Part shown: piece after piece, positions 42,333-45,215 of the stretch
Layout of the letters: every line of letters begins with the position of its first letter
Numbering within the stretch: position 1 is the stretch's first letter
Assembly (NCBI RefSeq): GCF_988242995.1
Contig: NZ_OZ547043.1
Reading direction: 5' to 3' (one strand)
Length of the DNA: 64,000 nt
Translations under genes and position numbers: made by a program
Notes under the pieces: model-generated
What the model was told of the DNA's origin: nothing
Seen by the model: only the letters and a program-made list of their open reading frames with translations
Database searches by the model: none

Positions 42333-44522
42333 TCAGAATTGATACGTGCCGGTAATGCTGAAATTACGCGGTGCGCCGTAGACGATAGAACCTTCCACGT
42401 TGGTATCGTAGGTTTTGTCGAACAGGTTATTGACGTTCCCCTGTAACGAGAAGTTTTTCGTCACCTGGTAGCGGGTGAAGAGATCCACCAGCGCGTAGCT
42501 ACCTTGCTCGGCGCGGAAGGTGCCATACGGTGTCACGGTGTCGGTATACACGCGATTTTGCCAGTTAACACCACCGCCGACCGTCAACTCTGGCATGACA
42601 GGCAACCGGTAGCTGGTGAACATTTTAACCGTGGTGCGTGGCAGATTAGGATTAACGGCGTTTCCTTCGTTATCCTCTGCAATATAGCGCGTTGCGCCAA
42701 ACGTCAGCTGCCAGTTGTCGGTAATTGCGCCGTTGAGTTCAAATTCCACACCTTTACTGACTGTCCCATCCACCGCTTTATAGGCGGTTTCGCCGTTGCT
42801 GCCGGGGATAGGTGTACCGGTGGACTGAGCGACATTATCCTGCTCAATACGGAAGATGGCTAACGTGGTGGTCAGACGGCTATTCATCCAGTCCGATTTC
42901 AGACCCAGCTCGTAGTTGTTACCGGTGATTGGAGCCAGATATTTGCCTGAACTGTCACGATCATTTTGCGGCTGGAAAATAGAGGTATAGCTGGCGTAGG
43001 TCGACCAGTTGTCATTGATGTCAAACACCAGACCAGCGTAAGGCGTGGTGTGGTTTTTCTCCATGCTGTAAGTCAGCGTATCAACCCGCCAGTTGGTATA
43101 ACGTGCGCCGAGGATCAGATGCAGCGGATCGGCAAGGGTGACACGAGTGGCAGCATATAACGATTTCATATGTGTGGTATCGTCCTGCGCCAGGCTCTGT
43201 GGTGACCAGTCGGTTTGTGGGAAATTGCCATTAAAGTTGTAGAAACTGCCAATTTCATCCGGGAAGATGTTGGCCCATGAACTGAAGTAACGATTGTTTT
43301 GTTTGCTGTAACTGCCACCAAACATTAGATTGTGCTGACGACCAAACAATTCATAACTACCGTCAGCAAACAAATCCAGCGCATCAACTTTACGTTTGCC
43401 GCTGTTCCAACCGGTACCGCCGACATAATCAAAGCCAGGTCCATAATTACTGTATGGCCCAACCAGCATACCATCCGCTTTGTTTACATAGGCATCGACA
43501 TACATCATTTTGCTGTCAAATTCGACTTCGGAGTGGGTGGCATTCAGTGTCGCTTGCCAGGTATCAGCAAACCGCTGCTTCAGGGTCATAAAGACCTTGT
43601 TGATCTCTTTATCGTTGTACGCCCAGTCAGGTGCGGTACTGCGTGCGCGATCGTAACTGTTGCTGCTGCCATCAGTATTCCAGCGCGGTAAACCGCCCCA
43701 CGTTGGGCTATTAACATCAATGCGCTGATATTCGTAACCGGCTGAAAGCGTCGTAAGATCGCCTAAATCAGCATCAACAATGCCGGAGAAGAAGGTCTTT
43801 TCACTGTTGTAGCGGTCCAGCCATGAGTCGTTATTCTGGTAGCCGCCGACAATTCGCGCGCGGATTTTACCATCTTCGGTGAGTGGACTTTGTAAATCCG
43901 CCACATACCGTTCTTTGTTCCAGCTACCGTATTCCGCCGAGACATCGCCTTTAAATTCACGACTGGTCGCGTGTTTTCGAACCATATTAATTGCCGCAGA
44001 TGGATTACCCGTCCCGGTCATGAGTCCTGTCGCGCCACGCACTACTTCTACGCGTTCAAACAGTGCCATATCAGAAAGTGCGTCGCCCAGATTCCAGCGC
44101 GATTCAAAATAGGTGGGGATACCATCAACCATATAGTTATCAATCTGGAATCCGCGGGAATAATAAAGAGCACGATCGGAATCCGCCTGACTTTTGCTGA
44201 TCCCCAGCGTGTTTTCCATCACTTCGCCCAGCGTTTGTAACTGCTGATCTTCCATCCGCTGCTGACTAACAATAGTGACCGACTGAGGAATATCACGTTG
44301 AGTCATCTGCATTTTGGTACCCGCAGAGGTAGACGTTACGCTGTAATCATTTTCGTCATCAACTGGAGTAGTGGCTGAACCCTCAACAATCACCGTTTCT
44401 TCAGTGGCTGGTGCAGCAAAAGCGGCGGAAGGTAAGAGTGCCAGTGCTATGCAGGCGGCAAGCAGTGACGGTTTGGAGGTGGTTTGATGTTGATTATCCC
44501 TGTTAAATTGTGTTGAAAGCAT
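42333..44522 (-). CDS. fhuE: TonB-dependent outer-membrane receptor for coprogen/ferric rhodotorulic acid FhuE
   Basis: Track ORF 729 aa; signal peptide, TonB box region and C-terminal beta-barrel ending in F. Confidence 0.95.
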   Translation of the reverse strand: MLSTQFNRDNQHQTTSKPSLLAACIALALLPSAAFAAPATEETVIVEGSATTPVDDENDYSVTSTSAGTKMQMTQRDIPQSVTIVSQQRMEDQQLQTLGEVMENTLGISKSQADSDRALYYSRGFQIDNYMVDGIPTYFESRWNLGDALSDMALFERVEVVRGATGLMTGTGNPSAAINMVRKHATSREFKGDVSAEYGSWNKERYVADLQSPLTEDGKIRARIVGGYQNNDSWLDRYNSEKTFFSGIVDADLGDLTTLSAGYEYQRIDVNSPTWGGLPRWNTDGSSNSYDRARSTAPDWAYNDKEINKVFMTLKQRFADTWQATLNATHSEVEFDSKMMYVDAYVNKADGMLVGPYSNYGPGFDYVGGTGWNSGKRKVDALDLFADGSYELFGRQHNLMFGGSYSKQNNRYFSSWANIFPDEIGSFYNFNGNFPQTDWSPQSLAQDDTTHMKSLYAATRVTLADPLHLILGARYTNWRVDTLTYSMEKNHTTPYAGLVFDINDNWSTYASYTSIFQPQNDRDSSGKYLAPITGNNYELGLKSDWMNSRLTTTLAIFRIEQDNVAQSTGTPIPGSNGETAYKAVDGTVSKGVEFELNGAITDNWQLTFGATRYIAEDNEGNAVNPNLPRTTVKMFTSYRLPVMPELTVGGGVNWQNRVYTDTVTPYGTFRAEQGSYALVDLFTRYQVTKNFSLQGNVNNLFDKTYDTNVEGSIVYGAPRNFSITGTYQF

Positions 44523-44594
44523 TTGAAATCTCTTGGTTTATGTTGTCGTCAGGCTCATGCCGGAGCAGGGTGATGAGCGGTTATATTTAGTGTG

Positions 44595-44647
44595 CGAATA
44601 ATTTTGCATGTAAATGCAAATGAGAAATATACTCATTCATATTTATC
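44595..44647 (-). promoter_or_regulatory. candidate Fur operator region of fhuE
   Basis: AT-rich hexamer-like repeats and palindromes (TTTGCATGTAAATGCAAA; AATGAGAAATATACTCATT) 75-125 nt upstream of fhuE; only a loose match to the GATAATGATAATCATTATC consensus. Confidence 0.3.
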
Positions 44648-44855
44648 GTGTAAACCAAACAGAGAATGTCTTTTCAGCGCATTCGCAGGCAGAAATGGGA
44701 TTAATGGCGATATATACGGCAGCAAAACGATTTTTTGCTTAAGAAATCGTGAGTTAAGGTTGAAAGAGCAGGTTTAACTCGACCATACTCTATACTCGCA
44801 GTGTGGCGCGGCGTAGCATGGCGCAACGCATGGCTATTTGAAAAAGGAAAATGTC

Positions 44856-45215
44856 GTGGCAGAAGAAACTATATTCAGCAAAATTATTCGTCGTGAGATC
44901 CCCTCCGATATCGTTTACCAGGATGATCTGGTAACGGCGTTTCGCGATATTTCGCCGCAAGCGCCAACGCATATTCTGATCATTCCAAATATCCTCATTC
45001 CAACTGTGAACGACGTGTCTGCTGAGCATGAGCAGGCGCTGGGACGCATGATCACCGTAGCGGCAAAAATTGCTGAGCAAGAAGGTATTGCCGAAGATGG
45101 CTATCGTCTGATCATGAACACCAACCGCCACGGCGGACAAGAGGTTTACCACATCCATATGCACTTGTTGGGTGGCCGTCCGCTGGGACCAATGCTGGCG
45201 CATAAAGGTCTGTAA
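44856..45215 (+). CDS. hinT: HIT-family purine nucleoside phosphoramidase HinT
   Basis: Track ORF 44838..45215 (TTG); GTG 44856 gives 119 aa starting [16 protein letters not shown] with the HIT motif HIHMHLL. Confidence 0.9.

Follow-up and report, generated by a model that had tools for sequence, protein, structure and literature searches.

Positions 44610-44646 of the window (the whole stretch of 64,000 nucleotides analysed here) very probably make up the Fur operator of fhuE. Six GnAAAT-like hexamers form an imperfect dyad about 44628; it would have the second of two neighbouring palindromes as its core and would lie directly over the sigma-70 promoter of the gene. Fur control of fhuE is textbook knowledge, and the operator is likewise already known, a site having been predicted at this position in 2007. 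Our reading draws on the anatomy of the sequence, on motif scores, on conservation and on where published data fall in the window, all of which are direct observations; Fur occupancy and repression at the window site would follow by analogy with the strains covered in the literature, with the window strain presumed to behave like K-12.

The gene regulated by this operator encodes the ferric coprogen/rhodotorulic acid outer-membrane receptor (729 aa) and occupies 42333-44522 on the minus strand, as judged from the list of open reading frames and the RefSeq annotation of matching E. coli records. Its divergent neighbour, hinT, bounds the gap on the other side (44856-45215, plus strand), and because hinT begins with a GTG at 44856 the gap comprises 44523-44855, the limits given in the original prediction. 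A stretch of 551 nt around the operator finds a match, 90-99% identical, in 5,425 of the 5,426 complete E. coli genomes, lying there between genes annotated as fhuE and hinT. With the fhuE ATG at 44522, the span first singled out for attention, 44595-44647, is 73-125 nt upstream. It had been described as palindromic and AT-rich, and it is both: G+C content is 24.5%, as against 41% for the whole gap, and the two palindromes are found 81-115 nt upstream of the ATG. Palindrome 1, TTTGCATGTAAATGCAAA (44603-44620; TTTGCAT-N4-ATGCAAA), has perfect 7-bp arms around a 4-nt spacer, and palindrome 2, AATGAGAAATATACTCATT (44619-44637; AATGAG-N7-CTCATT), has perfect 6-bp arms around a 7-nt spacer. A repeat-finding tool additionally reports a longer, imperfect dyad with 14-nt arms (44611-24 and 44632-45, 79% matched).

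Inverted repeats are enriched in the gap beyond chance. Seven have perfect 6-bp arms where dinucleotide shuffles lead us to expect 1.2 (1% of shuffles reach seven), and three have 7-bp arms where 0.3 are expected (2%); when the 53-nt core is shuffled alone, the observed pair of palindromes is matched in 2.5% of shuffles. Other inverted repeats lie outside the operator. One of them, GCTCAT-N14-ATGAGC, in the fhuE 5' UTR (44553-44578, minus strand), hardly varies within E. coli and forms the sole stable hairpin predicted for the 5' UTR, in the window and in K-12 alike. Two overlapping inverted repeats at 44721-44750 (AGCAAAA/TTTTGCT and ACGATTTTTT/AAGAAATCGT), identical in K-12, adjoin the upstream side of a predicted hinT promoter (TTGAAA at 44760 ... 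CATACT at 44789).

A consensus scan of the fhuE strand predicts a sigma-70-like promoter with 10 of 12 consensus matches and a 17-nt spacer, made up of a -35 hexamer TTTACA (44649-44654, minus strand) and a -10 hexamer TATATT (44626-44631, minus strand). Going by promoter geometry, transcription would start 5-9 nt downstream of the -10, at 44617-44621 on the minus strand. A start near 44619 would fall on the junction of the two palindromes and leave ~97 nt of 5' UTR (44523 to ~44619), with palindrome 1 covering approximately +1 to +17 of the transcript. Palindrome 2 spans both the -10 hexamer and the core Fur box, TGAGAAATATACTCA, a 7-1-7 type sequence at 44621-44635 centred on 44628. The extended operator is an imperfect 37-bp dyad, supported by the hexamer model, by the MG1655 ChIP-exo footprint and by the 14-nt imperfect arms. 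On the plus strand it reads as three hexamers (GTAAAT, GCAAAT and GAGAAA), a single T, and three inverted hexamers (ATACTC, ATTCAT and ATTTAT), arranged about 44628, and in these six hexamers together 20 of the 24 informative places (G1, A4, A5 and T6) show the expected base. The -10 hexamer thus lies inside the Fur core and the -35 sits 3 nt beyond the hexamer array, the kind of overlap between operator and promoter that marks a Fur box, with the promoter here predicted and conserved.

To score Fur sites we used a symmetric 19-bp matrix built from the best site in each of 15 Fur-bound K-12 promoter regions, fhuE being excluded (fhuA, fepA-fes, fepD-entS, fepB-entC, fiu, sufA, cirA, mntH, nrdH, exbB, nfeF-nfeR, feoA, fhuF, tonB and yncE). 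Note that fecI/fecA, ryhB and yncD were left out because the regions fetched were coding sequence, the published peak table being imprecise there. The matrix converged on GATAATGATAATCATTATC, with information mostly at hexamer positions 1, 4, 5 and 6. Scanning the gap, 44523-44855, puts the top score at the palindromes (44616-44634, 7.0 bits), followed by 44622-44640 (4.3 bits) and 44610-44628 (0.1 bits). These three top sites are 6 bp apart, the step expected for overlapping Fur sites. Outside 44595-44647 the best score in the gap is -0.7 bits, and no better matrix site was found in 44300-44960.

Other models agree on the location, the fhuE site being the best in the gap under every model tried. 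The 15-mer consensus TGAnAATnATTcTCA, derived from ChIP-exo (Gao 2023, PMC10164565), is matched with two mismatches at 44621-44635, where about 0.015 such matches would be expected by chance in a sequence the size of the gap. The same core has two mismatches to TGANAATNATTNTCA and matches TGATAATnATTATCA at 10 of 14 positions, again the best in the gap. A 37-nt model of three hexamers, one base and three hexamers scores 22 of 37 at 44610-44646, a value that 4 of the 63,964 positions in the 64-kb window reach and none surpasses; secondary matches are phased at 6 bp. The site had been said to diverge from the canonical Fur box, and so it does: it matches the 19-bp consensus at only 12 of 19 positions. 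Its 7.0 bits are weak as well, the training sites averaging 13 in leave-one-out scoring and 17 positions in the 64-kb window scoring at least 7.0. Its non-canonical look comes chiefly from mismatches to GATAAT, most of them at hexamer positions 2-3, where real sites hold little information.

Published data can be mapped onto the same nucleotides. A 12.4-bit Fur site was predicted for fhuE at position 1160880 of NC_000913.2 (Chen 2007, PMC2189734), which corresponds to 44628 in the window, 106 nt upstream of the ATG; the offset between NC_000913.2 and NC_000913.3 is +777, checked on the fiu, tonB and exbB sites. Fur ChIP-exo peaks are found upstream of fhuE in eight of nine E. coli strains (Gao 2023, Dataset 2, PMC10164565), and three of these we placed by sequence: the MG1655 peak, TAAATGCAAATGAGAAATATACGCATTCATATT, at 44611-44643, the W3110 peak at 44615-44627 and the CFT073 peak at 44611-44623. 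At other genes, ryhB for example, the listed peaks sometimes miss the motif by tens of nucleotides, so that the close agreement at fhuE partly rests on three strains concurring. In the MG1655 sheet, gene labels are off by one row from P37 (tonB) on; the fhuE row comes earlier and is confirmed by W3110 and CFT073. Binding at the fhuE site was reportedly also seen by ChIP-exo in a 2014 study.

That fhuE is Fur-regulated in E. coli, as the original prediction presupposed, is borne out by fur deletion mutants of eight strains, in which fhuE rises by a log2 fold change of 3.0 to 8.4 (8- to 330-fold; 32-fold in K-12) and the neighbours ptsG and hinT are barely altered (PMC10164565, Datasets 3, 4). 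fhuE has also been grouped with the regulons controlled by Fur only (PMC6143558). Another Fur peak, under the label hinT, is entered in the ChIP-exo table for MG1655 at 1161165-1161198 (NC_000913.2), for both iron conditions (PMC10164565); missing from the earlier study, it maps to 44913-44946, within the hinT coding sequence, where our Fur matrix finds nothing.

A weak Fur-like sequence, GATGTTGATTATCCCTGTT, is present within fhuE codons 7-13 (44486-44504). It scores 1.9 bits where the sequence is GATGTT (the window and CFT073) and 8.4 bits where it is GATATT (K-12 and Sakai); judging by its score, it is probably not functional in the window strain. The K-12/Sakai form, GATATTGATTATCCCTGTT, outscores the promoter site of those strains (5.3 bits), and the ChIP-exo peaks of MG1655 and W3110 do not lie there. 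The Sakai peak, given in the coordinates of NC_002695.1, would land on this intragenic sequence if read in the coordinates of NC_002695.2. If the offset were instead near the 128-nt difference in length between the two versions, the Sakai peak would fall on the GCAAAT repeats described below.

The fhuE operator of K-12 (NC_000913.3, ~1161640-1161672) is the orthologous locus, with a gap of 333 nt in both genomes. Comparison with the K-12 promoter gives a gapless alignment in which the -35, the -10 and the central hexamers GTAAAT, GCAAAT and GAGAAA are shared, and eight substitutions separate the two gaps, five of them within 44607-44648. Where K-12 has AATGCG the window has AATGAG; with this change palindrome 2 becomes perfect and the matrix score, 5.3 bits in K-12, reaches 7.0 bits. 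The window further reads GATAAAT for GACAAAT. On the minus strand it also has ACATGC for ACAAAC, the change that creates palindrome 1, an element that K-12 lacks.

Set beside canonical Fur boxes (GATAATGATAATCATTATC; fhuF, fepB-entC, sufA, yncE), the fhuE site has the same hexamer-array architecture and dyad symmetry, and both kinds of site sit over the -10 and start of an iron-uptake gene. It differs in quality of match (12/19 and 7 bits versus 15-21 bits for fhuF, fepB-entC, sufA and yncE), and its low score therefore places it with weak-scoring sites such as tonB, which reaches 10.4 bits, or 6.2 when left out of training. With sites of the GCAAAT type (fepA-fes, GCAAATGCAAAT..., tonB, nfeF and cirA) it shares the tandem GCAAAT/GTAAAT variant of GATAAT; unlike them, fhuE carries tandem hexamers downstream of the start, in a number that varies among strains.

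A scan for the FhuE protein with one genome per species returned 54 loci, from which 51 upstream regions could be anchored and aligned together with the window and K-12 (53 sequences). A sole block is conserved among them, tgTTTACA-N17-TATATT with AATG[C/A]GTATATTTC[T/G]CATTTGCATT, and it ranges from Escherichia, Citrobacter, Klebsiella, Kluyvera, Enterobacter, Leclercia and Buttiauxella to Pantoea and Rahnella, with the ATG some 95-120 nt downstream of it in most of the aligned sequences. The combination of TTTACA-N17-TATATT and AATGNGTATATTTCNCATTTGCATT is kept in about 50 enterobacterial species, with the -35 at the same spacing and the -10 nearly invariant across the 53 upstream regions. 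The core AATGNGTATATTTCNCATTTGCATT is found some 100 nt upstream of the ATG in the 53 sequences, from more than 15 genera, while its flanks are not conserved and the remaining gap sequence cannot be aligned between genera.

Palindrome 2 belongs to this conserved core. Its dyad pairs at six of six positions in 26 of the 53 sequences and at five of six in another 25. There are two symmetric states, AATGCG/CGCATT (Citrobacter, Leclercia, Enterobacter and others) and AATGAG/CTCATT (the window, Buttiauxella and Pantoea ananatis); most Escherichia and Klebsiella have an asymmetric one, AATGCG/CTCATT, and none of the 53 sequences shows the remaining combination, AATGAG/CGCATT. Both variable bases correspond to hexamer position 2, where real Fur sites alternate between A and C (GATAAT or GCAAAT).

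The left half of palindrome 1 (44614-44620) is part of the conserved CATTTGCATT block and of the hexamer array, whereas its right half (44603-44609) is variable and allele-specific, and nothing else in the region varies as much within E. coli as this right arm. The palindromic allele, traced by a 43-mer, occurs in 423 of 5,426 complete E. coli genomes (~8%), compared with 2,596 for the K-12 version, and among the 53 sequences only three show the full 7/7 pairing. Since CATGC is present in other Escherichia lineages and in many Citrobacter, the palindromic state is probably ancestral and that of K-12 derived. Because fhuE is strongly repressed in K-12, which has no palindrome 1, this element is dispensable for Fur control. 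The simplest reading is that palindrome 1 is not a separate element and represents the variable downstream end of a 6-bp periodic array of hexamers (TCTCAT, TTGCAT and TTACAT on the minus strand).

Palindrome 1 might nevertheless act in the transcript. On this reading, which we regard as improbable, fhuE mRNA would begin with a 7-bp hairpin of the stabilising, ompA-like kind, which would protect it from 5'-end-dependent decay and so alter the expression level of the allele. The window allele is indeed predicted to fold as UUUGCAU-UUAC-AUGCAAA, beginning one base after the putative +1, although this placement at the very end of the mRNA itself depends on the start deduced from promoter geometry, and the 5' UTR as a whole folds no better than shuffled sequence (z = -1.0 for the window, z = -0.6 for K-12). 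Arm changes in other Escherichia lineages leave 7/7 pairs if G-U is allowed (five to six of them Watson-Crick), but half of all transitions in a stem yield G-U pairs regardless. Pairing in the hairpin register averages 4.0 of 7 across the 53 sequences, against 1.1-1.9 in shifted registers; even so, it is lost in many genera, falling to 0-4 pairs in Klebsiella, Kluyvera and Raoultella, and within E. coli the hairpin is missing from the K-12 and B2 alleles, the palindromic allele being confined to the 423 genomes noted above. A search of 44300-45000 with the covariance models of Rfam 15 returned no match at E <= 1.

We give still less weight to the idea that palindrome 1 is the operator of a second dimeric regulator that would block just downstream of the start, independently of Fur. 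In its favour, palindrome 1 is a perfect 7-4-7 dyad, and the partial dyad GCAT-N4-ATGC does recur in Citrobacter, Leclercia, Enterobacter and Lelliottia. The same bases, however, also fit the 6-bp periodic nnnCAT/GCAAAT array of Fur, hexamers of GCAAAT form occur in the fepA, tonB, cirA and nfeF sites used for training, and the MG1655 Fur footprint already spans half of the palindrome. The variability of the right arm within E. coli and the Fur-only classification of fhuE (PMC6143558) argue in the same direction. That both palindromes are chance features of an AT-rich promoter, with the real Fur operator elsewhere, seems to us barely credible: the matrix score is modest and 14.5% of shuffles of the 53-nt core contain an inverted repeat with 7-bp arms, yet no position in 44523-44855 outside the site exceeds 0.1 bits, the ChIP-exo peaks of three strains and an independent prediction converge on the site, and the core is conserved across genera where the rest of the gap is not. 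The original prediction had posed an either/or, a degenerate Fur site here or the real operator elsewhere in the gap, and this can now be closed. The degenerate site stands, with the best matrix score and the ChIP-exo peaks of three strains at 44611-44643; an operator elsewhere in the gap is contradicted by the matrix scan, the ChIP-exo mapping and the conservation of the core.

With 44610-44646 as the Fur operator, regulation of fhuE is best explained by classical promoter occlusion. When iron is sufficient, Fe2+-Fur dimers would occupy approximately -24 to +9 relative to the putative start (we infer their stoichiometry on the array), and bound Fur would cover the -10 hexamer and the start site, thereby excluding RNA polymerase. 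When iron is scarce, Fur would be released and fhuE transcribed with its ~97-nt 5' UTR.

How variable is this operator within E. coli? We compared three K-12 99-mers with the 5,426 complete genomes, and the operator tile, with its core at 44603-44650, is much more polymorphic than its neighbours. For the operator tile (44581-44679), 1,321 genomes are at least 99% identical to K-12, 3,169 fall at 95-99%, 849 at 90-95% and 85 at 80-90%; the corresponding counts are 4,363, 1,061, 1 and 0 for the upstream tile (44680-44778) and 3,616, 1,563, 217 and 0 for the tile covering the 5' UTR and first codons (44482-44580). Identity below 95% is therefore seen in 934 genomes for the operator, compared with 1 upstream and 217 in the 5' UTR. 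The window's own 99-mer is found unchanged in only four of the 5,426 genomes, PCN033 among them. A sample of alleles includes substitutions just after the -35 hexamer (CGAT, TGAC, CGTC, CTCC), variant -10 hexamers (TGTATT in TUM13773, CATATT in O157 strain 2159) and, in the B2 strains 536 and TUM13773, one inserted nucleotide.

Two alleles involve larger changes. In O157:H7 (strain 2159 and Sakai) four tandem GCAAAT hexamers, a 12-nt expansion, lie just downstream of the fhuE -10 at the equivalent of window positions 44603-44621, most strains having a two-like copy number. Of the strains assayed, Sakai derepresses fhuE most when fur is deleted (log2 8.4), and in no other strain was Fur bound at fhuE under both iron-replete and iron-starved conditions (PMC10164565); a link between the GCAAAT expansion and this strong derepression and constant binding is speculative. 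In MSB1_4I a 57-nt deletion bounded by CAC microhomology, equivalent to 44594-44650, leaves fhuE without its -10, Fur operator and start region (to about +20) and with an incomplete -35; fhuE is probably silent or differently expressed in that strain. In O157:H7 strain 2159, RefSeq annotates a hypothetical protein of 60 aa (WP_001509522.1) across the fhuE promoter and operator, probably a spurious gene call over regulatory DNA.

A literature search on polymorphism of the fhuE promoter found nothing relevant. We tentatively raise the possibility that regulatory micro-evolution in E. coli has a hot spot in the fhuE promoter/operator, set in non-coding DNA that is otherwise nearly invariant. Selection could be tuning or silencing a xenosiderophore receptor, for instance where iron piracy is traded against exposing an outer-membrane target; instead of selection, neutral drift, a slippage-prone sequence or recombination may lie behind the variability. 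For the Fur operator itself, the fhuE case illustrates that strong repression can go with a Fur box that looks poor, its deviations falling at low-information positions and its extended array of six hexamers lying on the -10 and start, and that one of the two palindromes by which the region catches the eye is merely allele-specific. The variability of the operator, the changes in hexamer copy number and the promoter deletion could be of interest to students of regulatory-site evolution.
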